A stretch of DNA of 64,000 bases from Escherichia phage OliverMaurmann_Bas86. The stretch is from the sequence record PQ850622.1; one strand, given 5' to 3'. Position 1 is the first letter of the stretch, and each line of letters begins with the position of its first letter. The notes under the pieces are model-generated. The model did not search any database. It had not been told where the DNA came from and saw nothing but the letters and a program-made list of their open reading frames with translations. Below are positions 17,771 through 46,545 of this stretch, one piece after another. A program made the translations under genes and the position numbers.

Positions 17771-18073
17771 CTAGATTAAATCGTAATACTTAATAATATC
17801 AGAGAGCTTAAACTCTCGAATGTCATTCTTATCATTGTCCCAAGCGGTCATTATCCAACAAGGTTTGCCCCCATTATGATAACGGGAAGAAGCAACTGAG
17901 GTTCGTAAAGGAATAACGGAGCGGTCTGCAATCTCGCCTCTCCAATTACGATAGCTAAAGCGAAGAACTTGTTTCGTAGATACTTGATCATGTGTGTTTT
18001 CCTTGTTCATAGATTCAAAGATTTCCCTTTCTTCAGGAGTCTCTAGATTTTTTAAATTCGCGTCTTGCATCAT
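17771..18073 (-). CDS. hypothetical protein
   Basis: 100 aa ORF; start may be internal given overlap with the next gene. Confidence 0.3.
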   Translation of the reverse strand: MMQDANLKNLETPEEREIFESMNKENTHDQVSTKQVLRFSYRNWRGEIADRSVIPLRTSVASSRYHNGGKPCWIMTAWDNDKNDIREFKLSDIIKYYDLI

Positions 18074-18437
18074 TCTCTTCCTTAGTTTTTATCTTATGGC
18101 AAGGCTCTTTGCATAAGACTTGAAAACCATCTTTCTCAACTAAAGCCCTCTCGATGATTTCATCCCAAGTAGCTTCATGGTCCACTGGGACAATAGGCTC
18201 TATATGGTCTACTGCTACGTCTTTAAGAGGAGAATCATTACCACACATAGCACACTTATAGTGCATTGCCAGTTTGCCAGTTTTAGGGTTGATTTTACGT
18301 TCTGTCTGAGCCTCTTTGAGAGAATCAAACATAGGTTTCCATTTCCTAGTCAGAGAACGAATCCCTGACTTAATGAAGGAGTTATAACGTGCTTCAGTCC
18401 ACTGACCAGAGCATCTTGTCTTCTCAGCTTTCGCCAT
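18033..18437 (-). CDS. HNH endonuclease
   Basis: CAMCG...VDHIEPI...LCKEPCH zinc-binding HNH motif. Confidence 0.55.
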   Translation of the reverse strand: MAKAEKTRCSGQWTEARYNSFIKSGIRSLTRKWKPMFDSLKEAQTERKINPKTGKLAMHYKCAMCGNDSPLKDVAVDHIEPIVPVDHEATWDEIIERALVEKDGFQVLCKEPCHKIKTKEENDARREFKKSRDS

Positions 18438-18615
18438 AACCTACATCCATATCAGCGTCTTCCCAAATGCGTTTATTGACTCGGTGTGATTCTTTATCAG
18501 CACGAGGGATACGACCTGTGCGACGATCAAATGCTTGGTGCTTAATCTTTTGATCTTTACGAGATTCACGAGTAGAGGAGTTTTCATCATACGAACGATA
18601 GTCAAATTTACCCAT
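18424..18615 (-). CDS. hypothetical basic protein
   Basis: 63 aa ORF. Confidence 0.25.
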   Translation of the reverse strand: MGKFDYRSYDENSSTRESRKDQKIKHQAFDRRTGRIPRADKESHRVNKRIWEDADMDVGYGES

Positions 18616-18628
18616 TATAATATCCTTA

Positions 18629-19471
18629 TTACCAAGTTTTATCTAACCATGACCAATCAAAGAGGTCACCTTCAGCTTGTCCAACGAAGAGCAATCGAGC
18701 ATTTTCTAACATCTTAGCTTCTGCTTCTTCCTCGAACCTTTTATAGTATTCCATTCGTATAATATGATAAAGAGTCCACTTATCGAATACCTTCTCAATA
18801 AGTTTGATTGCAGCCTTACTACCAATGCCTTTACGACGCATTACTAGATTGCCACCCCACATCATTTCAACCTTCTCACCGCATCCGGGAATGTTATCTG
18901 TGCTATCCCCGATCAGCATCTGGTAGAAGAAGTTCTGCCATGCTACTTCTTCTGATACATAGTGAGGAGGTACTTCTTTCTGTCTCTCCCCGCAAGCCCA
19001 ACGGTAATGCCATCCGGGAGTGATTAACAAGTCTTTATCACGGGTGCAAATGATAGTGTTCTTATCACGTCTCTGTCTTTCAGCTAGGGCATCATCCGCC
19101 TCTCTCCCAAAAACTTCTACGTATTCGTAATTCTCTTTAATGTAATCACTGACATTTTGCCAGTGGTGAGGTCTTTCTCCCGGTGGTCGATTAGCTTTAT
19201 AACCTTGCTGCTTAGCAATATCAAACCGAAAATTACCACCTTCGCTGAAGTAAAAGATTGTTTTCTCACAACCAGACCTTGCAATGATTACATCTATTTT
19301 ATGTTGAAGTCGTTCAATCAAGAATCCATAATCAACTGGAACACGACCTGTGTCTAGAAAAGGATGCTCTTGTGTAAGAGCACCGACTTCATATCGCAGA
19401 ACATCTGCATCCACAATTGCTACTTCAGGATAGATTACATCAGACATAGAGATCTCTCCGTGTCTCTTCAA
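18629..19471 (-). CDS. 5'-3' exonuclease / flap endonuclease (FEN, RNase H-like)
   Basis: GDSTDNIPGCGEKV...GIGSKAAIKLI matches the helix-3-turn-helix region of Pol I-type 5' nucleases; true start may be ATG at 19447. Confidence 0.65.
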   Translation of the reverse strand: MKRHGEISMSDVIYPEVAIVDADVLRYEVGALTQEHPFLDTGRVPVDYGFLIERLQHKIDVIIARSGCEKTIFYFSEGGNFRFDIAKQQGYKANRPPGERPHHWQNVSDYIKENYEYVEVFGREADDALAERQRRDKNTIICTRDKDLLITPGWHYRWACGERQKEVPPHYVSEEVAWQNFFYQMLIGDSTDNIPGCGEKVEMMWGGNLVMRRKGIGSKAAIKLIEKVFDKWTLYHIIRMEYYKRFEEEAEAKMLENARLLFVGQAEGDLFDWSWLDKTW

Positions 19472-20036
19472 TAATCCACTCTAAATCATCAACTGCCTCT
19501 TCTACAGAACGGTCATTAAAGAGGAGGTAGGTTGGTAGGTTTGTTCCTTCAATATAAGAACGGGAGTCCCCTTCAAAGGAGCAGCCATCTCGGAGAATCT
19601 GAACTACTCGAACATAGAAGTGTTTCTCTAGTTCTTCAACTTCAGCTTTGAACCCACCATCAGAGAAGACGATAACATCATTCTGTGATGGGATACGTTG
19701 TTGAATACTGCTAACAGCAAGTTTACCCATGCAGGTCTCACCAAACATAGGTTTCAGATAATCCTCACTAGTTGCAATCATCAAGTCTCGAACTGACTTA
19801 CCGCCCCATTCAGGACGGATATGTTCTTTCCACTCACGGTCGTTGTACAGCTCCATGAACTTATAAAGAGGGAGACCTAATGCAGCAGCAGCCACCCGAT
19901 ACATAGGCTCCTTAAAAGCCTTTACATGCGGTCTAAACTCAGTGTTACCAGCGGTCTTCTCTAACCAAGCATTAGCGATTGTATCTTTACCACAACCCGG
20001 AGGTCCATTTAGAATTACTACTAATGGTTTACTCAT
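19440..20036 (-). CDS. P-loop nucleotide kinase (dNMP kinase-like)
   Basis: Walker A VVILNGPPGCGKDT; overall layout resembles T4 gene-1-type dNMP kinases. Confidence 0.5.
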   Translation of the reverse strand: MSKPLVVILNGPPGCGKDTIANAWLEKTAGNTEFRPHVKAFKEPMYRVAAAALGLPLYKFMELYNDREWKEHIRPEWGGKSVRDLMIATSEDYLKPMFGETCMGKLAVSSIQQRIPSQNDVIVFSDGGFKAEVEELEKHFYVRVVQILRDGCSFEGDSRSYIEGTNLPTYLLFNDRSVEEAVDDLEWIIEETRRDLYV

Positions 20037-20686
20037 TATTGAATCATCCCTTGAAGATCTTCTTTATCAAAGTGCTTCTCTACTACCGCTTCATACAGAT
20101 CACGATTCTCCGAATAACGGCGATAGAAGGTTCCGTGTGAAATTCCCAGCTCTTGTTGGATGTGATCATGAGGAATACCGAGGAAGAGCATTGAGAACAT
20201 ACTTGCCATCTTGCGGTTTTCCATAATATCACTTAGGTCTTGGAAGAAGAAAAAGATTCTAGATTCCAAGAATGGGTCTCCAGTAGAATCATGCTTATCC
20301 ATAGCAATCTCTAAAGGACTTTCCCATGAATTCATCTCGGGAGGTCTAAACATATCAGCCTCTGGAATAGAATAGATACGTCTGTCTCCAACTGTCTGAC
20401 GATTAGAACGAATCGACCAGATGATATTCTTCACACGATAAGTCATGTGTTCAATATCTTTTTCATCGGTAAGCAGTAGTTCTTCTTGCTTTGCAAATAC
20501 AAAACGCCAAGAGTTCAGTAACACTTCCTGAGCAACATCCTCTGCTTCGTGATAATCTTTAATGTCGTACATAAAATACTTATGCACAACTTTCCAATTC
20601 TCTCGATAGAATTCATCGAAGGTTGGGTAGTACTTAATAGGTATGCCATGAATACGATAGCGTGTGGGTGTTGTCTTTTTCTTCAT
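20036..20686 (-). CDS. phage-encoded sigma factor (ECF-like sigma-70 family)
   Basis: Region-2-like [13 protein letters not shown] and C-terminal region-4-like [18 protein letters not shown]. Confidence 0.6.
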
Positions 20687-20710
20687 AAGTCATCCTTAAC
20701 TTACTTTACA

Positions 20711-20935
20711 TTAAACTACACAGAATAAATACATTGCTGTTTCAGGGGAAGGTATGTGGTCACTAGGATATCTAACCCTAATCCACTCATCATCTTCTGC
20801 TACATAATAAGCCCAATAAGACCCATTTTCATTAATAAAGAACTTGAAGGTACAACCAAAGATTTGGTTATTGTGTTCCCATACTGCATGAAACTGAGTA
20901 ACACCTTCTGGTATTGTAAGTTCCGCTCTGATCAT
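20711..20935 (-). CDS. hypothetical protein
   Basis: 74 aa ORF. Confidence 0.3.
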   Translation of the reverse strand: MIRAELTIPEGVTQFHAVWEHNNQIFGCTFKFFINENGSYWAYYVAEDDEWIRVRYPSDHIPSPETAMYLFCVV

Positions 20936-21198
20936 TGTATTCCTCTCTCCTTTAGAGCTTTAAGCAAACCGTTGTGGTTAGCGGCACAGGTTGTATAATT
21001 GTCCTGATACCACTCGAGTGTTGTTGCAAGTGCTACTCCCTGTCCACTCTGAAGTAAAGGGAGGTCTACATCACATTCAGCTTTTAGGTTTGTTGGTAAG
21101 GGCATTAGCTGCCTGCTGTTGTCGCTCGTTGAACAAGCCATCAAACTAGAAGCGAGCAAAATCACCAAACAACTCTTTTGCTTTTTCTTTGTAAGCAT
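20932..21198 (-). CDS. lipoprotein (o-spanin-like candidate)
   Basis: From internal Met: MLTKKKQKSCLVILLASSLMAC with lipobox-like SLMAC, then Pro/Cys-containing mature part. Confidence 0.4.
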   Translation of the reverse strand: MLTKKKQKSCLVILLASSLMACSTSDNSRQLMPLPTNLKAECDVDLPLLQSGQGVALATTLEWYQDNYTTCAANHNGLLKALKERGIQ

Positions 21199-21496
21199 TT
21201 TCTGCACCTTCTTGAGTGCTATGATAACCAAGCCAAATTACTTTGTTTTGATATCCGATACGAGCACTCCATTTATTAATATCTGACCTGTATCCTACAC
21301 CTTTTATTCCAGTTAAAGAGTTCTTTTGAACTATTTTATTGGCATTGTTGAGGACAGGTGTTGCTTTTCTTAGATTGCTCCAAGAGTTATTAGACTTATC
21401 TAAATCTTTATGGTCTATTTGGAAATCGGGAATTTCTCCAGTTTTTATATACCAAGCAACTCGGTGAGCTTTGTATGTCTTTCTCTGAAAATTCAA
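21146..21496 (-). CDS. HNH homing endonuclease with AP2-type DNA-binding domain
   Basis: HRVAWYIKTGEIPDFQIDHKDLDKSNNSWSNLR (HNH) and GYRSDINKWSARIGYQNKVIWLGYHSTQEGAENAY (AP2-like). Confidence 0.6.
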   Translation of the reverse strand: MNFQRKTYKAHRVAWYIKTGEIPDFQIDHKDLDKSNNSWSNLRKATPVLNNANKIVQKNSLTGIKGVGYRSDINKWSARIGYQNKVIWLGYHSTQEGAENAYKEKAKELFGDFARF

Positions 21497-21627
21497 TGTT
21501 ACATAACCAGCTTTTGTTTTACACCCTGCAACCTTTCCTGCGAGTCTTGAGTTCCACTGAGCGCTCTTATCTTTAGAATGTTTCCAGTACAGAAGACCGG
21601 AAGCCTCGTCATAAGACAGATATTTAA

Positions 21628-21969
21628 TTAATTCTTTAATTTCAGTGCCTCCGCTGCTTGTTGTTGTCGTTCATTGAAAAGTCCTACATACTCATCACTA
21701 GCACACACATTGTAAAAAACTGGCTTAGTCTTTTCATAATGCATCTCTTTGTAAATAGTTTCCGTGTTCTTCTTCCAGTTAGATAAACCAGTCAGAACTT
21801 TCTGAGCCACTTCATCAGCAGCCTTAGCTCTCTCAACCTCAATCTCTTGCTGTTTCTTCTCTTGGTCAAGAGCATTACTATCACTTCTGTATTGCTCAAA
21901 CTTGACACCACCAAAGAAAACCAGAGCTGTGAAGATTAAAAAACCTATATTGTTTTGAAGCTTTTCCAT
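21628..21969 (-). CDS. membrane-anchored coiled-coil protein (i-spanin-like candidate)
   Basis: Start taken at ATG 21969 (MEKLQNN); TM IGFLIFTALVFFGGV then Glu/Lys/Gln-rich helix. Confidence 0.4.
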   Translation of the reverse strand: MEKLQNNIGFLIFTALVFFGGVKFEQYRSDSNALDQEKKQQEIEVERAKAADEVAQKVLTGLSNWKKNTETIYKEMHYEKTKPVFYNVCASDEYVGLFNERQQQAAEALKLKN

Positions 21970-21980
21970 TTTAACTCCAA

Positions 21981-22004
21981 CGAAAAAAGCCACCCGAAGG
22001 TGGC
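21981..22004 (-). terminator. rho-independent terminator (reverse strand)
   Basis: On - strand AGCCACC-TTCG-GGTGGCT followed by TTTTTT. Confidence 0.6.
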
Positions 22005-22027
22005 TAAGCTATTACAAGGAGAGATTC

Positions 22028-22768
22028 TTAGAATGGGCTATCATCTTCTTCAAAGGTTGATTGCGGCTCTTCGTTAATGGTAGGAATACTTGGAGTAGCA
22101 TCTTTCTGTTCAGTGTCAGAAGCTTTAGTAACTTCACGACCAGCCAGAGGGATATTCTTAGCATCGTTAGCTTGAGTCAAGAGGTTACGTTGGAATGGGA
22201 AGATTGCTTGATAAGCAGCTAAGTTAGCGTCAGTCTCAGCATACGGTTCGAAGAAGATCAACTCACTACGAGGAGCACCTACCGCGTCACGATATTTAGT
22301 CGGGATTGGAGTGATGCTTTTAATGGAGTTTTTCTTCTCACCAGCTTTATTGGTGTAAGAGTTAACCAGAATGTTAACAGGCTGACCTAACAGCATATCT
22401 TTAAACCAACCCAAATCACCTTTCAGTGCTTGAACACTTGGGTCGATCATTTTAATCAGATTTAGAATACCAGAGTTCTTAGCTCGTGGGTTTACATCAA
22501 AAGATTTAAACTGGCAAGCAGGACGAGGGTCCAGAGGTTTGCCTTCATTATCAGTCCCTGTTGCATCTACGCCAATCAGCTCAAAAGCTAAGTCCATACG
22601 GAAAGCTGGGTTCTTAGGAGTAACTGCTTTGGTTTTAGGGTCAATCCAAGGGTCACGATTGTGAACACCCAAACCTACAACACGAACAATACGTGCTTCG
22701 TACTCACCATCAGGGATTACATCGTAGTTGGATTTACGGGATACAGACAGTTCAGGGATCATAGACAT
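22028..22768 (-). CDS. single-stranded DNA-binding protein-like (acidic C-terminal tail)
   Basis: 246 aa ending ...STFEEDDSPF, resembling the acidic tail ending in Phe of SSBs; has its own promoter-like element. Confidence 0.45.
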   Translation of the reverse strand: MSMIPELSVSRKSNYDVIPDGEYEARIVRVVGLGVHNRDPWIDPKTKAVTPKNPAFRMDLAFELIGVDATGTDNEGKPLDPRPACQFKSFDVNPRAKNSGILNLIKMIDPSVQALKGDLGWFKDMLLGQPVNILVNSYTNKAGEKKNSIKSITPIPTKYRDAVGAPRSELIFFEPYAETDANLAAYQAIFPFQRNLLTQANDAKNIPLAGREVTKASDTEQKDATPSIPTINEEPQSTFEEDDSPF

Positions 22769-24071: not shown

Positions 24072-24295
24072 TATAAGATCTCCCTTTGTTTGCTGTTAAT
24101 GACTGTCATCGCTGTGACTGGATTGTTTGTTCCAAGATATTCTAGAACAGGGACACCCTTAGTCGGTTTATCAGCCTCTATGTAATTCTTAACCTTGCCA
24201 CCAAGAACCGCTAGAGAAGCCTGAGCTTCCGCTTCATCATAATGAATTCGGTCAACTGTTTTCTTTCCAATCTTATAAGTGTGAACGTAAATCAT
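24071..24295 (-). CDS. hypothetical protein
   Basis: Start taken at internal ATG 24295 preceded by AAGGA; ORF track gives 24071..24331. Confidence 0.3.
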   Translation of the reverse strand: MIYVHTYKIGKKTVDRIHYDEAEAQASLAVLGGKVKNYIEADKPTKGVPVLEYLGTNNPVTAMTVINSKQREIL

Positions 24296-24306
24296 TTTAA
24301 TCCTTA

Positions 24307-24486
24307 TTAACGAGTTGTAGTACGACTCCAACCTTCAACATAGCAATGACCGCCTACAAACTTAGTAGGTGCATTAAATTCTTTTGATATTCGTGTCTCA
24401 CAATCTTCTTTGCTGAAGTCTCCAAAAATATCTATTACCCAAAGAAACAAAGCAAAAGCGACAGCCCAGCATATAAACTTCTTCAT
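24307..24486 (-). CDS. small membrane protein (59 aa, below ORF-track cutoff)
   Basis: Hand-translated MKKFICWAVAFALFLWVIDIFGDFSKEDCETR...; ATG overlaps upstream stop as ATGA. Confidence 0.35.
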   Translation of the reverse strand: MKKFICWAVAFALFLWVIDIFGDFSKEDCETRISKEFNAPTKFVGGHCYVEGWSRTTTR

Positions 24487-25723: not shown

Positions 25724-27571
25724 TTAGTGAGTGTGATTCCAGTTTAACCCAATCTTACAATCAGATGCAAGAGGACATTCCATTTTGAGGTATTCACCTG
25801 CTTTACGAACACACTCTTCAGTGAGGGTACGAAGTTTGTTAACATCGTCACGATGTACAGTGAACTGGCCTTCATCATGCATGTCAATAACCTTCGCACA
25901 ACGAACACCATCACGCTCAATCCATTTATTAAGGAATAGCATTGCATACTTCATAACAATCGCCCCAGCGCTCTGTAAGAGAGTGTTTAAGGCTTTATGA
26001 ACCATAACCTTTCCAGTTGCATCTCTTCTCATTGTAATACGACGTCCATCCACACCGTAGATGTATCCACTTTGTGCTTTCTCTGTCATACGTTCAATAA
26101 GAATTGCAATACAAGGATTCTCTGCTAAGAATCTTGCCCTCATGACAGCCCCTTCATCAGAGCCACCACCTACGATGCTTCCTAACTTAGCGTCACCAGC
26201 TCCGTAGTTGAATGCATAGATAAACGTTTTAGCATTATCACGAGTAGGAAGGCCAGCAAGTTTTTGGTTATGTGAGTGAATATCTCCTTCTAAAAGAATA
26301 TCTCTGTACATAACAGCAGAAGCTAGACCGCGTTCAGCTTCTCGTTTCTTAGCTGGGTTGTTTTCCTGCTCTGCTTCAGCGAGCATCTCACGACATTCTT
26401 TGATAAGGTAATGAGCAAGCATCCTCAGCTCAAGACCAGAGCCATCGTAACCTAAGAAGATTTCACGACCAGCAGGTACATAAAATTTATAAGCACCTAT
26501 TGGTTTGTCTTTCTTGCCCGGTTTTCCCATTTCGTAGATAATGTTAGTACCCTTTCGTACGTAACACCCATCAGGGATATGGTTGGTAATGATGAAAGGA
26601 TGGTTATGACTATCGTCTGAGGAATAGTCAGATTGAAAAAGACTGCGGCACTCGTGACCAAACAAACCGCGAGAAGGAATATTAACAACAATGCGATGTT
26701 TAAAACGAAATGTCGGAGTAGCGCAGCTATTAGCTTCGGCGGACAACTTACCATCTTTACGTTCCTTGTCGATAAGCCCGCTAATCAAACCTAGCCTGTG
26801 AGCCGCTACAACGCGTCTCTTAAGCAAACTTCCTACACCCCCTAGCTCACCCCCAAGCCCCTCTTCAAGAGTCTCCTCAAGGTTTGTAGGGGCTGTAGGC
26901 CACTTGTTTGATGTAGCCAAAGCTTTTTTGATTTCATCAAAGGTTACAGGCTTCTTCCTATTAGGGTTGAGACCTAAACCGCTGACATAGGCTTTCATAT
27001 AATTGACAGTGTGATAACGGAAGTGCTTATCCAAAAACCTTCGGATATCAGCATCTATCATCTCTGCTGTCTGTTTCTCTTTAGCGTTACCTCGAATCCA
27101 AGCAGAATACCATGCAGAGTATGTACCATACTTCTTCATAGCTTTACGAATTTCAAAAGTATTCCAAGGTTTCTTAGAATAATTCCACTCTGGAGGTATA
27201 AAACCTTCATCCATCAAGGCTTCTTTGATACGTGCATCTTTTGATGGGTCAAAGTCTACATACTCAACGCAAGTAAACGCCCCACCGATATCTTCTCTTT
27301 TAAGACCAACCCTATCACAATAGAGTTGAGGCCACTTCTGCAAAGCACCGGACTTCTTAAAAGGTTTAGAATAAGTTGAACCATCCACCCGCATTTTGGG
27401 GAGGAGAGGAATCAGTTCTTTATCAATATTGACAATAATCTCTTTGAGAAGATGAACAAACCACCGAGCGTTTCTTCTGTTGAAGTTGACTCCATGCTTC
27501 GCCTGTTTTGAGATTATATCAGCGACTGTCATCTCCGTTATGAAAGGTAACTTATCAGGGTTATCCATCAC
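25724..27571 (-). CDS. DNA polymerase, family A, polymerase domain only
   Basis: Motif A YDGSGLELRMLAH, motif B RDNAKTFIYAFNYGAG, motif C VIDMHDEGQ; no exonuclease motifs in this ORF. Confidence 0.8.
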   Translation of the reverse strand: MMDNPDKLPFITEMTVADIISKQAKHGVNFNRRNARWFVHLLKEIIVNIDKELIPLLPKMRVDGSTYSKPFKKSGALQKWPQLYCDRVGLKREDIGGAFTCVEYVDFDPSKDARIKEALMDEGFIPPEWNYSKKPWNTFEIRKAMKKYGTYSAWYSAWIRGNAKEKQTAEMIDADIRRFLDKHFRYHTVNYMKAYVSGLGLNPNRKKPVTFDEIKKALATSNKWPTAPTNLEETLEEGLGGELGGVGSLLKRRVVAAHRLGLISGLIDKERKDGKLSAEANSCATPTFRFKHRIVVNIPSRGLFGHECRSLFQSDYSSDDSHNHPFIITNHIPDGCYVRKGTNIIYEMGKPGKKDKPIGAYKFYVPAGREIFLGYDGSGLELRMLAHYLIKECREMLAEAEQENNPAKKREAERGLASAVMYRDILLEGDIHSHNQKLAGLPTRDNAKTFIYAFNYGAGDAKLGSIVGGGSDEGAVMRARFLAENPCIAILIERMTEKAQSGYIYGVDGRRITMRRDATGKVMVHKALNTLLQSAGAIVMKYAMLFLNKWIERDGVRCAKVIDMHDEGQFTVHRDDVNKLRTLTEECVRKAGEYLKMECPLASDCKIGLNWNHTH

Positions 27572-28812: not shown

Positions 28813-29193
28813 TTATCCGTCATTGTTAGTTATCCTCTGATTGAAAGTGTGAATTGCGTGGCAGTTAGCGCAGAGGATTCTGCACTTCTTCATCTCTGCC
28901 TTCACTTGAGAAATTGATCTCGTGTGACCTTGAGATAGCTCAAAGGATTTTTCAGAGGGGTTAATATGGTCAAACTGGAGAGCAGAAGCGTGTTCTTTAT
29001 AGCCACACAGAGAGCATCCGTAAAAGGTTTTAACTCTTCTGATGAATACTAATTGTCGATTTCTTCTCTCTTCATTGTAAAGCCTACGCTTCTCCCTATT
29101 AGCTGGGTCCGCGTACCTGCACCTGTCTGAACAGTATTTTTGAAATACAAACCTCTTCTCAAATACTTCTTGACAAGTAGGACAAACATCCAT
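28813..29193 (-). CDS. HNH endonuclease
   Basis: Cys-rich N-terminus, FDHINP...CANCH. Confidence 0.5.
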   Translation of the reverse strand: MDVCPTCQEVFEKRFVFQKYCSDRCRYADPANREKRRLYNEERRNRQLVFIRRVKTFYGCSLCGYKEHASALQFDHINPSEKSFELSQGHTRSISQVKAEMKKCRILCANCHAIHTFNQRITNNDG

Positions 29194-29268
29194 GTTACTA
29201 ACTCCTCCTTAAAATCCTTATAGGTAAGTACATTACATAGCATCAAGCACAGCTATCATATGCTACTT

Positions 29269-30836: not shown

Positions 30837-31484
30837 TTAACTCTCCAAAGTTTTCTTCAAAGCTGCCCATGAGATTGGATAGAGTTTAGCCATCTCTTCA
30901 TCTAATGACTGAGCAAATAGTCGAACTTCATATTGAGCATGGGATGATAGTCGTTGACGACACAATTCAAACCAGCCATACAAGCTACCAGTCCAGTACC
31001 AAGTAGTTACCATACCTTGAGGTAAAACAAATCTAGCTTGTTCAGGAGCTACGAACTTAATCAATTCGTCATAACTAGCAAGAGATGCCTCGTACGCAGA
31101 GTTAAACAAAGCTAAAGCTTTTGCCTCTTCCTCCCCTTCAAGAAGTATTCCAGAACCAGAATGTAGATCATCTGGACGGGAGAAGATTTCTTTAGGTATG
31201 AAAATATCCACTGCTCCATCTTTATATCTACGACTCATCTCGTTCCAAGAAAAACCAACTTGATGCTTCTGTAACTGTCGTGCAATTGCTATAGGAGCTT
31301 CGCATCTGAAGCTCGCTTGTGGGTGACGAAAAGGACTTACGTGTCGTTCCCGAGCTAGAAAATTTATTAGACGAGTGTCACTTTCTTTTAATTCTTCCCT
31401 TTCTACCCCCATAGTTACACGAGCAGCATTGACTACTGTAAGATCTGAACCGAAGTTATCAATTAATGAAGCTTTGATTGTCAT
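30837..31484 (-). CDS. thyX: flavin-dependent thymidylate synthase (ThyX-like)
   Basis: RHPQASFRCEAPIAIARQLQKHQVGFSWNEMSRRY matches the ThyX RHR...S...SxRY signature. Confidence 0.7.
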   Translation of the reverse strand: MTIKASLIDNFGSDLTVVNAARVTMGVEREELKESDTRLINFLARERHVSPFRHPQASFRCEAPIAIARQLQKHQVGFSWNEMSRRYKDGAVDIFIPKEIFSRPDDLHSGSGILLEGEEEAKALALFNSAYEASLASYDELIKFVAPEQARFVLPQGMVTTWYWTGSLYGWFELCRQRLSSHAQYEVRLFAQSLDEEMAKLYPISWAALKKTLES

Positions 31485-31950
31485 TTATGTAAGTCTCCTT
31501 GACTTTATTATATTCCCTAGAGGCTTCTTCTATGGTTGAGAAGAGTCCTATGTGCTTAGATTTAAATACCGCCCGGTAAGCAATAGAGCCACTTTTCCTT
31601 CTATGGACAGTCACTCCAATCACTCCGGTTGATAAATTATTACTCTGAGCTACTTTGTTTAGGCCATTTCCTGATCTAGTAGTCCCCCTAAGATTCTCTC
31701 TTTTGTTGTTTATCCTGTTGCGGTCTATGTGATCTACTTCTTCAGGAAGCAATCCAGTGTCCCACCAGTAAGCAAGTCGATGAGCGTAGTATCTAGCACC
31801 TTTATAAACGATTCTCAAATACCCATTGGTATTTACAGAACCAGCTATAGACCCTTTGTGTCCTTTTCCATAAGTTTTAACCCATCGGAAATCTCCAGTC
31901 AAAGGGTCGTAATCAAGAGCTTCTTTTATTGACGGGTCAATATCATTCAT
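31459..31950 (-). CDS. HNH homing endonuclease with AP2-type domain
   Basis: YAHRLAYWWDTGLLPEEVDHIDRNRINNKRENLR plus VIGVTVHRRKSGSIAYRAVFKSKHIGLFSTIEEASREY. Confidence 0.6.
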   Translation of the reverse strand: MNDIDPSIKEALDYDPLTGDFRWVKTYGKGHKGSIAGSVNTNGYLRIVYKGARYYAHRLAYWWDTGLLPEEVDHIDRNRINNKRENLRGTTRSGNGLNKVAQSNNLSTGVIGVTVHRRKSGSIAYRAVFKSKHIGLFSTIEEASREYNKVKETYINDNQSFIN

Positions 31951-31965
31951 CCGTGAATACCCTTA

Positions 31966-32295
31966 TTATTTATTGCCTAGAGCTGTATCCAAAAATGCTT
32001 TCAGGTTTGCTTCAGTCTGCATACCGGAGAGGCTGTAGTGTGCACCACTGTTACGGTCAGGCACAACGAAAGCAGGGATACTTCGTACACCATACTTAAC
32101 AGCTTGTTCACGACCATCACCTTCAAGGATGTTAATCTCTTCCACTTCTACATCAAACTCCTTAACAACCTTCTCAAAGGTAGGAGCCATTGCTTTACAT
32201 GGAGCACATGAATTACTATAAAATTTAATTACTTTACTCATTCTATTCCTTGTTAATAAACAGATTGATATGGCGCTGAGTAGCAGGGACAACAA
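31966..32295 (-). CDS. thioredoxin-like protein
   Basis: KFYSNSCAPCKAMAP CxxC active site; true start probably the internal MSKVIKF. Confidence 0.6.
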   Translation of the reverse strand: MLSLLLSAISICLLTRNRMSKVIKFYSNSCAPCKAMAPTFEKVVKEFDVEVEEINILEGDGREQAVKYGVRSIPAFVVPDRNSGAHYSLSGMQTEANLKAFLDTALGNK

Positions 32296-32431
32296 TAAAA
32301 GATTTATACTGCCCTTTTGCTAAATCATGAGCAATCTTCTTTGTCTGACCAAGACCCATTACACAGCCACTAACAATAATGGCATGTGCTTGTAATTCTT
32401 CAGGGAGGTTTAATTTCACTCTTTGGATTCC

Positions 32432-32617
32432 TTACAGCATAACAAGAACGATAATAAGAGGTAGTGTTATAGCAAAATGTACCAGAACAACACTACCTAG
32501 CTTGATAGCTTTAACATCCTCTTCTGCTGGGTTTTCTTTAATTGCTAAATTTCGAGCTTTATAGATAATAGTACCAACTATTAACGACCACACGGCCCAC
32601 ACAACCAATGAAATCAT
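32432..32617 (-). CDS. small two-TM membrane protein (paralog 1)
   Basis: MISLVVWAVWSLIVGTIIYK...VVLVHFAITLPLIIVLVML. Confidence 0.4.
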   Translation of the reverse strand: MISLVVWAVWSLIVGTIIYKARNLAIKENPAEEDVKAIKLGSVVLVHFAITLPLIIVLVML

Positions 32618-32626
32618 ATCAAACCC

Positions 32627-32806
32627 TTATGCAGTCAGAAGGTGAAGCAGGAATGGGATAACAACAGCTACGACAACCATGATGGTTGATGCTGTTTGAA
32701 TCTCACCTTTCTTGTCAGGGGTTTCTTCAATAAGCTTACCAGAAGCCCAATAGATACCACCGCCAATAAAGATAGCCCAAATACCCCATACGATTGCTGA
32801 TAACAT
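32627..32806 (-). CDS. small two-TM membrane protein (paralog 2, 59 aa, below ORF-track cutoff)
   Basis: Hand-translated MLSAIVWGIWAIFIGGGIYWASGK...MVVVAVVIPFLLHLLTA, clearly related to 32432..32617. Confidence 0.35.
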   Translation of the reverse strand: MLSAIVWGIWAIFIGGGIYWASGKLIEETPDKKGEIQTASTIMVVVAVVIPFLLHLLTA

Positions 32807-33443: not shown

Positions 33444-33774
33444 CCCCTTCTAAGTTAGTTGAATTAGCTACATTACGAGCAATGTTATCCATGACCTGCT
33501 GGGTAATAACAATGCAATTCTGTGGGTCTACAGACTTAGAACGCCCCATTTCAGGGTCATAAACCTTAACACGCTTGGCTGTTGAGCCAGTAACTTGCAA
33601 CACTTTGAGAAGATAACCTTGGTTTCCAATAGACCATGCAACAACATCACGATTCTTGATATAACGACCAAGCATATCACGATGATAGAACTGCTGCATA
33701 ACTTTAGCTTTGCTAATCTCTTCAGATGGCGGGGCCACTTTACTCAAATCTAACATAACTCTCTCCTGTTTCAT
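33427..33774 (-). CDS. hypothetical protein
   Basis: 115 aa ORF. Confidence 0.3.
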   Translation of the reverse strand: MKQERVMLDLSKVAPPSEEISKAKVMQQFYHRDMLGRYIKNRDVVAWSIGNQGYLLKVLQVTGSTAKRVKVYDPEMGRSKSVDPQNCIVITQQVMDNIARNVANSTNLEGDAPNA

Positions 33775-33826
33775 ACAATATTCTTATACTGTATATACAT
33801 TTGAGAGTTATCATATCTACTACCAA

Positions 33827-34033
33827 CTAGTAGTGGACCTTGCTAGTCAAGGACCCAGCACTGTTATTATCATTTTGAAACCAGCGATGAATCTCCACTT
33901 TTTCAGCGAGTCCTAAAGCTTTTGTAGCTTTCTTAGCAAGACGAGCTTCTTGTCGTGTGTCGAATAATTTAAGACAGTCACCACCGAGATCTTTGTTAGC
34001 CCATTTAACACGAACTGCCCATAATTTAACCAT
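33827..34033 (-). CDS. hypothetical protein (tandem paralog)
   Basis: Shares W.VRV.W....TRQEAR and C-terminal KVHY with 34033..34248. Confidence 0.35.
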   Translation of the reverse strand: MVKLWAVRVKWANKDLGGDCLKLFDTRQEARLAKKATKALGLAEKVEIHRWFQNDNNSAGSLTSKVHY

Positions 34034-34248
34034 TAGTAATGTACCTTTCCGCTGATATAGAAACGACCTGATTTAAAGTCCTGAGCTTTGTGGATAGTGA
34101 TCTTGTCAATAGTACTTTCGCAGCTTAATAAGAACTTCTTATGAGCGCGAGCTTCTTGACGAGTGTTTCTGATACCCATTGACTCTGTACCACTGCTCCA
34201 GTGAACGCGGACTACCCAACGTCTTTTCATTGTTCCAAACTCCATCAA
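34033..34248 (-). CDS. hypothetical protein (tandem paralog)
   Basis: Shares W.VRV.W....TRQEAR and C-terminal KVHY with 33827..34033. Confidence 0.35.
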   Translation of the reverse strand: MMEFGTMKRRWVVRVHWSSGTESMGIRNTRQEARAHKKFLLSCESTIDKITIHKAQDFKSGRFYISGKVHY

Positions 34249-41424: not shown

Positions 41425-43458
41425 TTAGTGTTTACCTTTACAGTAATCTGAATTACAGATCACCCTGTTTTCTTTGTTCAGTGAGCAAGTTTCTGCATCA
41501 CGCCACGGAATTTGTTTATAACAGACTGCACAAAACCCAATTGAAGTCCAGAGGGCTTTTGTAAACTCAGCTGTTCGTTGTCCATCGTAACTGACAACTG
41601 TTTTTCGGAGAGAGGTTGACTTTTCTGGAAATGTCTCCGCTTTCTCAGCGGGTACCTCCTTTGGGGCATTCTTTGGACCATAAACAGAGATGGCATAAGT
41701 ATCACCACCACGTTTTTCCAAATACGAATTAGGAACATCTGCAAGTGTGATGTCCCCTGAACGTTTTGCTGAGCTGACCATTACAATCATACGGCTAAGC
41801 ATACGTTCATCAACACGAACAGCTACTTCAGGACGACGTGGGTTGGTTGTGTCTACTGCTTTAGTCCAAATATAACCTTCAGATAGAGTAACATTCTTTA
41901 CTTTATCTTTGATTTCTTTGGAGCAGATATAACAAACGTCTTCACCACGAAGTTTACTCATTTCGTTGTCAAACTCGAAATCAGTCTTGACTTCACCACA
42001 GATAGCACATACACCCAAAGGCACATCTTCTTCCTCTTCAGAGGTTTTAGATAACGCTTCGAAGCATTCTGGATGCCAGTATGCCTGATAAGCAAACACA
42101 GCCTTACGAGCATCTTTCCAGTCAATGTGCTTATCACAACCACCACAGTCACCATGAGAGTGAGATTCCCAGAACTTACGAGTGACTTCTACACCATTCT
42201 TAGTGATGAAGGAGTCCTCTGCATCAAAAGGGATATCATCATCAAAATCAGCAGTAGTGCTTTGAGGCTCCTTATCTGTAGCATCAACAAACAGCCCTGA
42301 AGTTAGTACGAGGCGAATCATACTGTCCACTTCGGAGATACAAGCGATTGTCCCGCGATATACTACCTTTGGGTTTTCAAGAGCCTTAAGATATTCATCT
42401 TTGGCTACGTTGTGAACATCCCCTTCGACATACTCTTGGGCTTTATCATCGTAGATGTAACCAACCATCTTACCACGATCTGTGTTGTTATAAGCATGGA
42501 ACTCGTGAGGAGTAATATCCACACGACCATCACGACGATAAGGAAGACCACGATCGGCAGCCAGTTTGTTCTGGTCTTCAATCGCTTTACGACGACGAAT
42601 GTCTCCGCTTGTCACGCCGGGCTTGTCGTCTTTGTTTCCGTAAATGTCGCTTGTGCTGCTGCTTGGTTTGTTTGTCTGTTGGTTCTGATAAAGAGAGGAG
42701 TTCGAGTAATAGCCGCCCCAGCGACTCGTTACCGTAAAAACCGGAAGCTTGTGCTCCACCTCTTGAACCAGAGTCATACGACTGTTAGACACATCAAAGA
42801 TATACTCAGTTCCCACTTTACACTCGAAGTGGTCATTGATACGGTTCTTGTGGGATTTAGAACGCTCTAAAATCCACATAAGCATAGCTTCTTCAGAAGC
42901 CCCAAACCAATCCAAACCACAGCGGGCTAGGTGGAAAGGACGCTCATCATTACGGATAATGTGAAGCGTGTTGTCTTTAGCATCATGCCAAATCAAAGTG
43001 AATGCACCATCCAGTTTTTGGATAGTCTCTGCTGCTCCAATGGTGTTAATTGAGTGGCAGATGTTTTCACTATCAACTTCGAAACGCTTACTGTCAGGAA
43101 GGAGATCTTGATCTAACAGGGTTCCATTATGAACCAGAGTAATATCCCCGTGAGTAAATGGGTGAGCATTTCGAGCATTGACAGCCCCACGAGTGGCATG
43201 TCGGCTGTGACCAACAATCCACGAAGGAGGAACTACGTAGTTCGTAAGCCCTTTGGTAATATTTGTATATTCTGTCTGGAGCATAAAAGCATAAGAAGGA
43301 AGAGCTTCTTTATAAGAGAAGACTTGCTTTTCACCTTTACGCTGACCAAACACACCAGTTGAGTGCTGTCCACGGAAAACACCAGCATACAGAAGTTGGT
43401 TGAAAATGTCCAAATCTGCTGAGGTCATGTTGCCGCCAGCTAATACGATACCACAAAT
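41425..43458 (-). CDS. class-II (Ntn) glutamine amidotransferase with Cys-rich C-terminal domain; probable ATT start
   Basis: In-frame extension upstream of the first ATG reads stop-K-I-CGIVLAGGN-M...FRGQHSTG, i.e. the Cys1 nucleophile and RGxxxxG motif of Ntn amidotransferases; AGGTGG lies 8 nt upstream of the ATT. Confidence 0.55.
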   Translation of the reverse strand: MCGIVLAGGNMTSADLDIFNQLLYAGVFRGQHSTGVFGQRKGEKQVFSYKEALPSYAFMLQTEYTNITKGLTNYVVPPSWIVGHSRHATRGAVNARNAHPFTHGDITLVHNGTLLDQDLLPDSKRFEVDSENICHSINTIGAAETIQKLDGAFTLIWHDAKDNTLHIIRNDERPFHLARCGLDWFGASEEAMLMWILERSKSHKNRINDHFECKVGTEYIFDVSNSRMTLVQEVEHKLPVFTVTSRWGGYYSNSSLYQNQQTNKPSSSTSDIYGNKDDKPGVTSGDIRRRKAIEDQNKLAADRGLPYRRDGRVDITPHEFHAYNNTDRGKMVGYIYDDKAQEYVEGDVHNVAKDEYLKALENPKVVYRGTIACISEVDSMIRLVLTSGLFVDATDKEPQSTTADFDDDIPFDAEDSFITKNGVEVTRKFWESHSHGDCGGCDKHIDWKDARKAVFAYQAYWHPECFEALSKTSEEEEDVPLGVCAICGEVKTDFEFDNEMSKLRGEDVCYICSKEIKDKVKNVTLSEGYIWTKAVDTTNPRRPEVAVRVDERMLSRMIVMVSSAKRSGDITLADVPNSYLEKRGGDTYAISVYGPKNAPKEVPAEKAETFPEKSTSLRKTVVSYDGQRTAEFTKALWTSIGFCAVCYKQIPWRDAETCSLNKENRVICNSDYCKGKH

Positions 43459-43535
43459 TTTCTAATCCACCTGAAGGGTAAACCCTTTCATCTAATTAAC
43501 CTTTAAATGCGCCCTGTATAAGAGCGCCCGTTGTG

Positions 43536-44636
43536 TTACAGCAGTCGTTCTAATTGCATTTCCAGAAGGTCTGGAATATAACCAGTGACGTTATCATCAC
43601 TGCTACCTGATTCACGCATCAATGCAAACATGTGACGAATTTCACGAACCGTTGCGATTCGAGTGCTTTCAATCTGAGGGGTGTAGTAGGTCATGATCTC
43701 TTCGTAGACACTGTTGGCATTACCGCGCACATATCCCAAGAAACCATAGAAGTCATTCATATCACGTAAGTTGATAAGGACTTCACCATCAGGGCCAGTC
43801 TGTTGCACACGAACACGACCAACCAAAGTCACAGATTGCTCACGACAGAAGAGAATATCACGAGCAAGACGATACCCTTCAGTGAGATCACTGTCTCTTG
43901 GAGTATAGTCTAGGGGTAGATGTTGAATCATAGGAGCGAAGCGCAGCTCATTCAACTTCTCAACATAAGCTTCATTGTCTAAATCTGCATATTCAACAGC
44001 CAGTTTCTTGAGAACCAAGAAGCGGTTGACCAGATTCAGAAGTTGGCTCTTTTTCCACTTCGGCTCTGAGATACGGAACTCAACAGAACCAAATTGAGAT
44101 AGAGGCAAAAGATTAAGGGAGGTATATTTATCCCAGCTATTAACAAGAGAGTGGAAGAAAGCTTCCCCGTCTCGGTTGAACGCTGACGAAGCATTCATAA
44201 CTTGTGCTTGAACGACAGCAAAAGCTGGACAGAAGTTGCTACGATAGCGATGGTATCCAGAACATTTGAACATCATCTTTTCATAGAACGTCCATCCAAG
44301 AATAACTTTCTTAAGGATGTTACTATCAGCGTCACGCATATCCATATGAACATGAGTGGAGCAGCGCCAAGTTCCCTCGGCTCCAGAATCCTGTACTGCT
44401 TCACTCAGATTGTTAATAGCACGAAGTAATTCTTCACCGTTGTAAGGTCGTGCACATACTAATTCACAACCATCACGAAGAGAGCCATCTTCAGTACAAA
44501 CCCACATATCAGCGTCAATGTCAGTTGTACCTTCGACTTCTAACTCAATACCAACACCACACTGAAAAGCAATACTTGGATGCGGTTCAGATAAGCGAGG
44601 GTTACGGTATCCAAAAACTTGTGCTACGGTTGTCAT
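43536..44636 (-). CDS. glutamine-synthetase-fold carboxylate-amine ligase (amidoligase)-like protein
   Basis: GVGIELEVEG and STHVHMD resemble the GxExE and HVH motifs of YbdK-type ligases. Confidence 0.45.
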   Translation of the reverse strand: MTTVAQVFGYRNPRLSEPHPSIAFQCGVGIELEVEGTTDIDADMWVCTEDGSLRDGCELVCARPYNGEELLRAINNLSEAVQDSGAEGTWRCSTHVHMDMRDADSNILKKVILGWTFYEKMMFKCSGYHRYRSNFCPAFAVVQAQVMNASSAFNRDGEAFFHSLVNSWDKYTSLNLLPLSQFGSVEFRISEPKWKKSQLLNLVNRFLVLKKLAVEYADLDNEAYVEKLNELRFAPMIQHLPLDYTPRDSDLTEGYRLARDILFCREQSVTLVGRVRVQQTGPDGEVLINLRDMNDFYGFLGYVRGNANSVYEEIMTYYTPQIESTRIATVREIRHMFALMRESGSSDDNVTGYIPDLLEMQLERLL

Positions 44637-45259
44637 AATGATTCCACCAACTCTACATTATATGATGACAGGTCTGAAGAAATATGCTTGAACTTCTCCA
44701 GAAGGTTTAAAGATTGACGACCATTGTCGCCATAACCAGCTTCAAGAAGCACGTTTCCAACGTAAGCCCCTTTGTAATAAACTTTTCCATCGACAGGATT
44801 GATATAGATGAAACGAGTAACCAACCCTTCAAACTCTGGATTAAACAGGTTGTACACCAATTCACCCGGAATCGAACGACCGAGAGAAGGAGGTGCACCG
44901 CGAAGTTTGTTTCCCATCAAACCTTTAGCTCTCTGACGAACAGGGTTGATATGGGTCCAGCTCACCATGTTATTGCCATGCTGAAGGTATCCTACATCTG
45001 GAGATTCCAGAATAAGGCTGTGATCAAACACTGGTATATTGCTAACAATCTGACGTTCAAACTGACCTTCAGAGTTTTTAGTCCAACGTTCTGCCTCAAA
45101 CACTAAAGACATTTCAGCGTCGTGTGAGTAGTCGTCGATATCAAAGTTACCTTGCTGACGAACATCAAGCACATATAGAGGGAGGTTTTTACCATCAGGT
45201 GATCGCTGAGCAATCCATGTTCCACAATAATAGTGTTGAAAATCTCTTAACAAGCTCAC
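44633..45259 (-). CDS. hypothetical protein in amidoligase module
   Basis: 208 aa ORF, overlaps neighbours. Confidence 0.35.
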   Translation of the reverse strand: MSLLRDFQHYYCGTWIAQRSPDGKNLPLYVLDVRQQGNFDIDDYSHDAEMSLVFEAERWTKNSEGQFERQIVSNIPVFDHSLILESPDVGYLQHGNNMVSWTHINPVRQRAKGLMGNKLRGAPPSLGRSIPGELVYNLFNPEFEGLVTRFIYINPVDGKVYYKGAYVGNVLLEAGYGDNGRQSLNLLEKFKHISSDLSSYNVELVESL

Positions 45260-45268
45260 AATATCACC

Positions 45269-46078
45269 TTATACAATCTGGAGTTTAGAGGAGAATTTAT
45301 CCGCTTCTTTAACATCGTTGCTGTTGATGATGTTATGAAGCTTTTCGATTGGAAGACGAGAGTGAAGTGACATCAACACTTCCATATCACAGCCTTGAAC
45401 AACCTTATCCACTTGCTCATAAACAAACTTGCGGGTTGACTTCTCACCAATCCAGAAGTTAGAAAGAGAACGATATTCAATACCGTAGTCCTTGTAACGA
45501 ATAGCAGAAGCCTTTCCGTACAACTCTTTACGACGAGTGTCTTTATCCATGATTACAGCTGGCAAGGACAGGAAGTAATCACACAGCACACCCAACATCA
45601 TTTGAGTTTGTCGATTGATCTCCAAAGTTCCAGAGACACCGAGGTGCACATGGCCCCCAGCAGTACGCAAACCTTTATCGGTTGCGACTGGTGAAGGGTT
45701 CTTTTGTCCAGTGAAGGCGTTGAAATCAGGAGTACAGCCAAATACAAAAGCTGACGGATGGAATGATTCAAGCTCTTCTGAAGTGAACACATGAGAGCTA
45801 ATCCCAAGCGCTGCTTCCAGACCACGATCATTCAGGATTTTGTTAGTCAGATCAATACCGCGCTGAATATTATCATCAAACGCTTCAAACCCTTTCTGTG
45901 GGTTAATATCAAACTCAGCCAGAACGTTGTCTTCTTGAAGACGAACATCAGGAGCCAGATCAATTTTGTTATCTTTAGAACATCCCAGCTTACCAGCCAC
46001 AGAGGTGATAATACCGGAAGCAGTACGAACAAACATTTCCGGATCCGACCCTATTAAGAATTTACGTTTAGTAGTCAT
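45269..46078 (-). CDS. second amidoligase-like protein (weaker match)
   Basis: FLIGSDPEMF and GGHVHLGV echo the same GxExE / HVH pattern. Confidence 0.35.
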   Translation of the reverse strand: MTTKRKFLIGSDPEMFVRTASGIITSVAGKLGCSKDNKIDLAPDVRLQEDNVLAEFDINPQKGFEAFDDNIQRGIDLTNKILNDRGLEAALGISSHVFTSEELESFHPSAFVFGCTPDFNAFTGQKNPSPVATDKGLRTAGGHVHLGVSGTLEINRQTQMMLGVLCDYFLSLPAVIMDKDTRRKELYGKASAIRYKDYGIEYRSLSNFWIGEKSTRKFVYEQVDKVVQGCDMEVLMSLHSRLPIEKLHNIINSNDVKEADKFSSKLQIV

Positions 46079-46545
46079 GCTTTAGTCCAACCTTTATGAG
46101 ATAGATAGTTTTTAAATCTGCCACTGTGCACAGCGCCCATGTGGCCTTGATGTAAGTCGTTGCTTCTACAGAAGTCTCTAAGATTGTATATTGTTACAAC
46201 CTCGCCATCTGGAGATCTAAACTTCCAAAATCTAGCATTCCCTTTCACAGCGTTTTCTTCACTGGTCAGAAGTTGGAAATTACTTGGGTGGTTATTAAGT
46301 TTATCGCCATCGATGTGATCAACAGTCATACCATCCGGAATAGGCCCAATAAACAATTCATACATAAGTCTATGTAATAAAAAGTTCCTTGTTATCTTTT
46401 CAGGAGCCTGAACTGTTGTAAACTTAAGATAACCATCTTTATCAGGAAACAGTTTCCTCTGTTTCCCTGTTCTTGCATGGAATATACTACCGTCTTCGAA
46501 CACCAAGAAGGTAGCAACTCCGACTACTAACTCCCTAAATTCCAT
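46075..46545 (-). CDS. HNH homing endonuclease
   Basis: VDHIDGDKLNNHPSNFQLLTSEEN. Confidence 0.55.
   Translation of the reverse strand: MEFRELVVGVATFLVFEDGSIFHARTGKQRKLFPDKDGYLKFTTVQAPEKITRNFLLHRLMYELFIGPIPDGMTVDHIDGDKLNNHPSNFQLLTSEENAVKGNARFWKFRSPDGEVVTIYNLRDFCRSNDLHQGHMGAVHSGRFKNYLSHKGWTKA

Follow-up and report, generated by a model that had tools for sequence, protein, structure and literature searches.

One fixed HNH gene and four putative homing-endonuclease cassettes, three of them probably with recoded gene ends, in a phiEco32-like coliphage

Five open reading frames (ORFs) of the HNH endonuclease family are found in a 64,000-nucleotide stretch of the genome of Escherichia phage OliverMaurmann_Bas86 (PQ850622.1), which was analyzed as a whole and is referred to here as the window. 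Judged by its sequence, the window belongs to a phiEco32-like coliphage (Gordonclarkvirinae, Suseptimavirus-type), and the HNH genes lie in a leftward-transcribed block of replication and nucleotide-metabolism genes. A preliminary description of the window had listed five HNH ORFs. All five are present, all are on the minus strand, and they are numbered here from left to right:

18033-18437, minus strand: HNH #1, a core HNH-family gene that is PF01844-like and of the Cys4 zinc type (phrog_3106, 2e-37)
21146-21496, minus strand: HNH #2, as first called
28813-29193, minus strand: HNH #3, Cys-rich (phrog_2255, 1e-28), in a cassette at 28824-29268
31459-31950, minus strand: HNH #4, an HNH_3 gene (HNH_3, 3e-10; phrog_99, 4e-44)
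46075-46545, minus strand: HNH #5, an HNH_3 gene (HNH_3, 3e-17), in a cassette at 46040-46547

The presence of HNH motifs in all five ORFs is upheld by the PHROG families, as every ORF matches a family annotated as HNH endonuclease (E 1e-23 to 5e-57). Pfam supports only part of the set. HNH_3 (PF13392) is matched above the gathering threshold by #2 (E 3e-14), #4 (3e-10), and #5 (3e-17), while a Pfam search with #1 and #3 gave no significant HNH match (best E 0.048). The translations of #2, #4, and #5 contain DH...NN...N strings that can be read directly from the sequence. An AP2 domain had also been assigned to both #2 and #4. In #2 the domain is detected (E 2e-7), although its 31.5 bits fall just under the Pfam cut-off of 33.3. 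Pfam returns no match in #4, even on the isolated C-terminal half; AP2 is implied there only by the parallel with #2, with which #4 aligns colinearly on phrog_99 and shares 33% identity that extends through the C-terminus. No AP2 domain was found in #5.

The distribution of these genes among related phages is what separates them from one another. Megablast matched 98 phage records to the window over 17-33 kb, nearly all of them Escherichia podophages of the phiEco32 group, with PAS59 (96%), SU7, Bas87, and EK010 as the closest relatives. Because so many close relatives have been sequenced, empty insertion sites can be sought directly. Occupancy was counted in the GenBank phage collection (~100 related records), which was taken because a scan of IMG/VR with the i-spanin returned only 6 loci; the sites were compared in detail in 10 genomes, and the sizes of empty sites are distances between flank probes in the window and in the relatives.

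Sites of #2, #3, #4, and #5 are occupied in 8, 9, 8, and 5 records, respectively, with one additional variant at the site of #5. Elsewhere the sites are shorter by a defined length. The site of #2 is 545 nt shorter in ECBP2, Bas88, phiEco32, and SU10; that of #3 is 398 nt shorter in six close relatives; and that of #5 is 502 nt shorter in seven relatives. At the site of #4 the difference is 460 nt in phiEco32 and SU10 and 241 nt in Bas88, and a different HNH gene (39% amino-acid identity) occupies the site in Bas87, ECBP2, EK010, and E20-1. In relatives with precise empty sites, the flanks are 90-100% identical to the window. Bas87 is 100% identical to the window along 1 kb upstream of #5, yet it does not carry #5. 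Turnover of the HNH cassettes appears to be fast, since PAS59, although 96% identical to the window overall, lacks #3 and #5. PAS59 (L002) also has three HNH genes that are absent from the window (32257-32742, 33619-34122, and 24075-24470), and the genomes compared have twelve or more different sites of HNH insertion between them. A tblastn search with 13 further HNH proteins of the relatives found no extra copies or remnants in the window beyond the five.

Two of the cassettes stand in islands of high identity. In an alignment with the Kuravirus-genus phage PE006, identity is 86-100% across #5 and 50-80% in the flanks, and the block of thyX, #4, and thioredoxin (30900-32800) is 86-100% identical to the Kuravirus-genus phage O18-011, with flanks at 60-77%. 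Judged from these alignments, #4 and #5 have recently been transferred between genera. The thyX/thioredoxin region of the window (30837-32295) is itself mosaic; its thioredoxin-like gene is 96-100% identical to that of phiEco32 and SU10, which are of a different genus, and 75-79% identical to that of Bas87 and SU7. Taken by their sequence and distribution, #2-#5 behave as free-standing homing-endonuclease genes (HEGs) that come and go between close relatives.

Their free-standing state is indicated by the lack of detectable intron RNA. At the gathering score, Rfam found no group I intron in the whole window and only a tRNA, a single tRNA-Arg(TCT) gene at 52393-52470 on the minus strand (67.5 bits). 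At E<=1, the region from 17 to 48 kb gave no intron and two chance-level matches, ar15 and NRON. As a positive control, the same search finds RF00028 (27 bits, E 1e-4) around the HNH ORF in the polymerase gene of ECBP2. Since no group I intron RNA is detectable, all five HNH genes are taken to be free-standing, and #2-#5 are separate ORFs with their own stop codons that abut their neighbors and leave no spare RNA. The family A DNA polymerase gene of the window (25724-27571, minus strand) is an intron-less allele. In ECBP2 (L010 9419-10024), SU7 (L009 9651-12102), and PAS59, the same gene is cut at motif C, with a group I intron, itself host to an HNH ORF, lying between IDMH and DEGQ, and the split polymerase is annotated in GenBank as two "DNA polymerase" coding sequences (CDSs).

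The most elaborate of the cassettes is that of #2, which involves the following features:

21628-21969, minus strand: i-spanin, Rz-like (phrog_1152, 3e-33); its last codons (21628-21684) are a cassette-borne tail, GLFNERQQQAA-EALKLKN followed by the stop
21652-21684, minus strand: recoded upstream copy of a 33-nt target, GGACTTTTCAATGAACGACAACAACAAGCAGCG, compared below with the downstream copy
21146-21640, minus strand: HNH #2 in its extended form (HNH_3 + AP2-like), in a cassette at 21140-21684 (545 nt)
20932-21198, minus strand: o-spanin (phrog_2425, 2e-23) with a new signal peptide, MLTKKKQKSCLVILLASSLMAC, at 21133-21198
21107-21139, minus strand: native downstream copy of the 33-nt target, near-identical to the empty alleles and now encoding only the N-terminus of the mature o-spanin

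The suggestion that #2 sits between an i-spanin and an o-spanin was correct, as both neighbors match spanin families (phrog_1152, 3e-33, and phrog_2425, 2e-23) and the latter has a lipobox. The two genes have the makeup expected of a two-component (Rz/Rz1-like) pair, with a predicted membrane anchor in the i-spanin, whose hydrophobic N-terminus is visible in the translation, and a lipobox Cys in the o-spanin, which conforms to the lipobox rule at Cys22. The same 267-nt ORF is annotated as O-spanin in SU7. A 70-nt stretch of the i-spanin (query positions 820-889 of window 20850-21940) has ~80% DNA identity to its counterparts in the spanin genes of EC6, JH2, and other FelixO1-like myophages, a likeness in line with the single family in which Kongari placed these i-spanins.

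In the empty alleles, the spanin genes overlap. The i-spanin ends in ...SLFNERQQQAASALTNKPKS and a stop (also given as ...YVSLFNERQQQAASALTNKPKS and a stop), and the o-spanin (MKRLSQFFTMCVLAMNLSAC/STSDNS...) begins inside it in another frame. A predicted target of #2 in these alleles is GATGAGTATGTCAGCTTGTTCAACGAGCGACAACAGCAGGCA, and the insertion point is the Ser codon of the lipobox, between ATGT and CAGCTTGT. In the window, the two 33-nt copies on either side of the endonuclease gene differ at 8 of 33 nucleotides and at none of the 11 amino acids in the i-spanin frame, while the old o-spanin frame in the recoded upstream copy is closed by a TAG. Downstream of the stop of #2, the native sequence resumes and codes for the mature o-spanin. 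The signal peptide that precedes it is read in an alternate frame of #2, over the final 53 nt of that gene (overlap 21146-21198), from a start with the Shine-Dalgarno sequence AAGGTG 6 nt upstream. By this comparison, the spanin genes once overlapped and have been pulled apart by the insertion of #2.

A variant of #2 in EK010, E20-1, and KM01 (67% amino-acid identity) has the same design in a different sequence. The i-spanin tail of the EK010 variant, SLFNQRQEEAKRVLKSKE and a stop, is changed at 14 of 30 nucleotides, including switches of codon family for Ser, Leu, and Arg, and its o-spanin signal peptide, (M)HIKKKLLSCTGILLAFSLSAC with AAGGAG upstream, is overprinted like that of the window. 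In both variants the new signal peptide passes the lipobox rule, and the former start either runs into a stop codon or lacks the Cys. The target itself lies in the most conserved stretch of the spanin locus, with 22-24 of 33 columns invariant among eight empty alleles compared with mostly 6-17 elsewhere; high conservation is to be expected here because the segment is dual-coded.

The gene for #2 also appears to have been under-called at TTG 21496, as its homology begins right after the i-spanin stop, at ~21640. In the extended frame, residues 2-159 match phrog_99 (5.5e-57) and residues 4-161 are 43% identical to HegI of T5, and the N-terminal part stays open across the 67% variants. As a guess, translation may start at ATT 21640, which has GGAGG 7 nt upstream; the aligned codon in EK010 is ATC, with AGAGGG upstream. 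Production of #2 as a frameshift fusion from the i-spanin was considered and is implausible, as there is no slippery site and the C-terminus of the i-spanin is periplasmic.

The cassettes of #4 and #5 are both situated at the 5' ends of host genes, which are listed here with the remains of one of them:

30837-31484, minus strand: thyX, with a cassette-borne start and N-terminus, MTIKASLIDNFGSD..., and a 26-nt overlap with the 3' end of #4
45269-46078, minus strand: COOH-NH2 ligase gene of the amidoligase module, with a recoded surrogate 5' end at 46040-46078, MTTKRKFLIGSDP
46527-46577, minus strand: dead stub ORF that holds the native first 10 codons of the ligase (46548-46577, MTKRAFLIGS) and runs into #5

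At thyX, the empty allele of phiEco32 reads ...GGATATTCACGGATGAATGAACAACTACAA (thyX, MNEQLQATLIEAMGSD), while the junction in the window reads ...GGGTATTCACGGATGAATGATATTGACCCG. Comparison of the two indicates that #4 has taken the ribosome-binding site and ATG of thyX itself, with ATGAATGA (31943-31950) belonging to the native initiation region of that gene. In the first aligned codons of thyX, 20 of 60 nucleotides differ, and the thyX allele of the window is common only to carriers of #4. Alleles with the alternative HNH gene have a third thyX N-terminus, MSDFLKATLVEHMGSD.

The position of #5 within the amidoligase module, which had been proposed from the window alone, is borne out by the annotation of the relatives. 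In their empty alleles the ligase begins ATGACTAAGCGTGCTTTCCTTATTGGTTCTGACCCT (MTKRAFLIGSDP) and overlaps the stop of the upstream gene, and a predicted target of #5 is ATGACTAAGCGTGCTTTCCTTATTGGTTCTGACCCTGAAATG. In the window, the stop of #5 is overlapped as ATGA and followed by ATGACTACTAAACGTAAATTCTTAATAGGGTCGGATCCG (MTTKRKFLIGSDP). The stub that is left upstream differs from the empty Bas87 allele at 1 of 30 nucleotides, whereas the surrogate differs from the empty allele at 11 of 45 nucleotides with 1 of 15 amino acids changed. The same stub and surrogate occur alongside #5 in SU7, PE006 (where the endonuclease has 95% amino-acid identity), and, as a variant, Bas89, and the surrogate ligase end is therefore considered part of the mobile unit.

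Two further cases are seen in relatives. An HNH gene of ECBP2 (L010 2658-3101) is fused to the first 15 codons of an exonuclease gene, and a recoded exonuclease start follows it. Likewise, gp31 of phiEco32 (L014 1451-1903) is fused to the first 10 codons of gp30, the ortholog of #1, and a recoded gp30 start follows gp31. The cassette of #3 is simpler. It stands in place of a 47-nt spacer and is a plain intergenic insertion, in which #3 has a strong Shine-Dalgarno sequence of its own (AAGGAGG) and a stop that overlaps the ATG of the next gene.

HNH #1 differs from the others in its distribution. Its orthologs occupy the same place in all 10 genomes compared, with 79-100% amino-acid identity and a divergence that tracks genus boundaries and phylogeny, and a query of the gene with both flanks is covered over >=80% in 96 of ~98 related records. 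On this evidence #1 is a fixed core gene of the phage group and no recent invader, and the ortholog in phiEco32 (gp30) has itself been invaded by the HNH cassette gp31. The preliminary description had read all five genes as repeated invasion by free-standing homing endonucleases and had proposed to look for related genomes without the insertions. Such genomes exist for #2-#5, for which invasion also agrees with the lack of intron RNA and the sporadic occurrence. For #1, with its near-universal occupancy, the proposal does not hold.

The family assignment of #1 is supported by homologs at 50-55% identity that carry PF01844 and by the columns C62/C65/D77/H78/C109/C113/H114, which are invariant or nearly so in a 26-sequence alignment. 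A search of PDB sequences with #1 gave no match. The only HNH ORF that was modelled, it has an AF2 model with a pLDDT of 94, for which the top Foldseek matches in the PDB are the Gme HNH nicking endonuclease 4h9d and then the Cap5 HNH, both non-significant (E 0.22-0.5). Members of the kuravirus clade have one additional residue ahead of the last Cys-x-x-Cys-His. The ortholog bears the label "terminase small subunit" in several relatives; according to a review of kuraviruses, this label likely arose from the HNH domain, and the small terminase is another gene (PMC9965538). A packaging-associated role of the HK97 gp74 type was considered for #1 and is not supported, as the gene adjoins an exonuclease gene and not a terminase gene, at the distal end of the leftward replication and nucleotide-metabolism operon.

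Taken together, the window probably holds one fixed gene (#1) and four sporadic HEG cassettes, of which #2, #4, and #5 lie inside coding sequence, only some codons away from a gene end, and bring recoded replacement gene ends with them. From the comparison of the genomes, we regard the sporadic distribution, empty sites, and identity islands as established, as well as the lack of introns, the duplication and recoding of gene ends, and the intactness of the host ORFs. The presence of mobile HNH genes is real but mostly ordinary, and the added value is in the architecture of the insertions.

How such cassettes would spread can be proposed from known free-standing phage HEGs, for which homing, repair, immunity, and low expression have been described; it is by this parallel that we infer the same for #2-#5 (PMC2988022). 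In a mixed infection, the nuclease would cut or nick the uninterrupted allele at a conserved sequence that spans the insertion point, and recombinational repair off the HEG-bearing genome would copy the cassette along with flanking DNA (co-conversion). The carrier genome would be immune, as its recognition sequence is interrupted by the cassette and would no longer be matched by the recoded copy. The surrogate end would keep the host gene working, such that duplication does what splicing does for intron-borne endonucleases, and weak, borrowed, coupled, or non-canonical translation starts may hold nuclease levels low.

Several points weigh against this account. Nuclease activity is a prediction from intact ORFs, conserved catalytic columns, and distribution, and in #1 of the kuravirus clade the middle Asn of the motif is replaced by Gly-Phe (DNLQVLC to DGFQVLC). 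That the surrogate ends function (the i-spanin tail, the signal peptide, and the N-termini of thyX and the ligase) is likewise a prediction, based on conservation and on frames that stay open. Between the two variants of #2, conservation is highest in the dual-coded 3' block, which is suggestive of extra synonymous constraint, but with two variants the effect is modest. The frame of #2 before TTG 21496 contains no ATG, GTG, or TTG, #5 has no Shine-Dalgarno sequence, and the homologs of #3, which share only 71-72% amino-acid identity with it (SU7, L009 13378-13728; ES17, L020 1805-2155; 1-6af, L021 1805-2155), are open but unannotated and without an obvious N-terminal ATG. As starts are weak or lacking in #2, #5, and the homologs of #3, some copies could be poorly expressed or defunct. 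For #3, no near-identical copy was found in any database genome; the closest has only ~80% nucleotide identity, so that a recent transfer of #3 is unsupported. Lastly, a single event does not readily account for the origin of such a cassette.

These points bear most directly on the possibility that #2-#5 are former HEGs that no longer home and are kept either because host genes depend on the cassette sequence or because the nucleases serve the phage, for example by excluding competitors. Weak or non-canonical starts and the distant homologs of #3 are in keeping with this, as is the fact that outright loss of #2 or #4 would remove the start of the o-spanin or of thyX, and intron endonucleases have been reported to act in interference competition between co-infecting phages (PMC11620839). 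Nevertheless, the ORFs are intact, have catalytic motifs, and stay open in variants over 67-95% amino-acid identity, the identity islands of #4 and #5 speak for recent transfer between genera, and the combination of low occupancy and clean empty sites is what marks elements that are still cycling. We therefore consider loss of homing across #2-#5 rather unlikely. The opposite view, that all five genes are recently invading and active free-standing homing endonucleases, draws on the HNH family membership of every ORF and the presence/absence polymorphism of four, but it is very unlikely given that #1 keeps its position in 96 of ~98 records, diverges along the genome phylogeny, and is in phiEco32 the target of another cassette, gp31.

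It has also to be asked whether the spanin and ligase insertions are intron-like and removed from the mRNA. This is what the BASEL records imply, in which a two-piece "join" CDS spans #2 in the Bas87 spanin (L001 5441-6333) and the homolog of #5 in the Bas89 ligase (L017 1020-2331), and the polymerase gene of relatives does harbor a true group I intron that contains an HNH ORF. In the window, however, no group I intron was matched at either the gathering score or E<=1, and the insertions are taken up by the HNH ORFs over their whole length, with no space left for a ribozyme core. Copies of the target stand on either side, which splicing would not need, and a join across them would be arbitrary. 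Intron-like excision is thus scarcely credible. Because complete host ORFs run through the recoded ends and intron RNA is lacking, the joined CDSs are probably artefacts of annotation, and the reading with one fixed gene and four sporadic cassettes is retained.

The direct precedent for the spanin cassette is found in T5-like phages, in which a GIY-YIG HEG lies between spanin genes that overlap in relatives (Kongari et al., 2018; PMC6139136). In that case, the differences are confined to the extreme C-terminus of the i-spanin and the lipoylation signal of the o-spanin, and the new N-terminus of the o-spanin must still encode a signal (PMC6139136). The outcome is the same as with #2, an overlapped pair separated by a homing-endonuclease gene. 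In contrast to the T5-like case, #2 is HNH_3/AP2-like and occurs in an unrelated group of podophages, the signal peptide is overprinted on the 3' end of the endonuclease gene, and the target is duplicated and recoded; moreover, the direction of the insertion is resolved by ~90 empty alleles. The Kongari data set held only members of the phiEco32 group without the HEG (phiEco32, ECBP2, NJ01, and KBNP1711) (PMC6139136).

The mob and seg genes of T4 are likewise free-standing HEGs that are intron-less, sporadic, and accompanied by co-conversion of flanking markers (Edgell et al., 2010; PMC2988022). Their starts overlap the upstream ORF or are without a recognizable initiation region, which limits expression, and the elements are either intergenic or split genes, as does Aeh1 mobE in nrdA and T4 mobA in gene 60 (PMC2988022). 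By contrast, the surrogate ends of the phiEco32-like cassettes leave the host ORFs whole. No account of duplicated or recoded gene ends at phage HEGs was found in the T4 review (PMC2988022) or in a study of HEGs in ICP1, although they may be described elsewhere.

Closer in arrangement are the HEGs of fungal mitochondria, which are accompanied by partial C-terminal duplications of atp6 and cob (PMC6279837). As with the cassettes described here, insertion is near a gene end and a duplicated copy of that end is present. The fungal elements encode LAGLIDADG or GIY-YIG endonucleases that are often degenerate, they reside in an organelle, and the duplicates are in intergenic spacers, whereas the present ones are HNH genes of a lytic phage; most of them stand at the 5' end of a host gene and capture its start codon, and one is dual-coded.

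With regard to the endonucleases themselves, #2 appears to share the arrangement of an N-terminal HNH_3 and a C-terminal AP2-type domain with the HNH-AP2 homing endonucleases (PMC10448857). Beyond the kuravirus group, #2 is closest in sequence to HegI of T5 (43% amino-acid identity over the full length) and other HNH endonucleases of T5 and phiEB49, the insertion sites of which differ from that of #2. We know of no spanin or gene-end context for them. Phage genes for family A DNA polymerases can also contain a group I intron with an HNH ORF, an example being the one with I-PfoP3I (PMC3428280). Those in the polymerase genes of ECBP2, SU7, and PAS59 belong to the same phage group and nuclease superfamily as the genes of the window and use a highly conserved site (motif C), but they have a detectable ribozyme (RF00028), and none of the five HNH genes of the window is intron-associated.

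A broader possibility, which we put forward tentatively and with chances slightly short of even, is that one HNH_3 lineage in phiEco32-like phages lives in essential ORFs independently of splicing, near gene ends, with a borrowed ribosome-binding site and start or stop and a recoded surrogate. Five instances would belong to it, namely the spanins, thyX, the ligase, the exonuclease of ECBP2, and the core HNH gene of phiEco32, and the overprinted signal peptide would act as an addiction-like lock. Because the signal peptide of the o-spanin is overprinted on the AP2-like C-terminus of #2, a lysis gene would depend on a selfish gene. If this is true, the dependence of the o-spanin on #2 could preserve the element after homing stops.

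The architecture of these insertions would also explain a number of artefacts in public records, including "join" CDSs, truncated starts, missed o-spanins, and "terminase small subunit" labels, and it marks sites that tolerate insertions of 0.4-0.55 kb for phage engineering. The BASEL phages and other close coliphages with and without each cassette make up a tractable set in which homing, co-conversion, and the cost of insertion could be followed. The spanin locus appears to be a second, independent case of a selfish element separating an overlapped spanin pair, and the direction of change is resolved here. In the usual view, homing endonucleases remain harmless through intergenic siting or through self-splicing introns and inteins. 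This phage group seems to add a third route, in which the element inserts inside an ORF at several loci and brings a rewritten gene end, a copy that would at the same time destroy the element's own recognition site.

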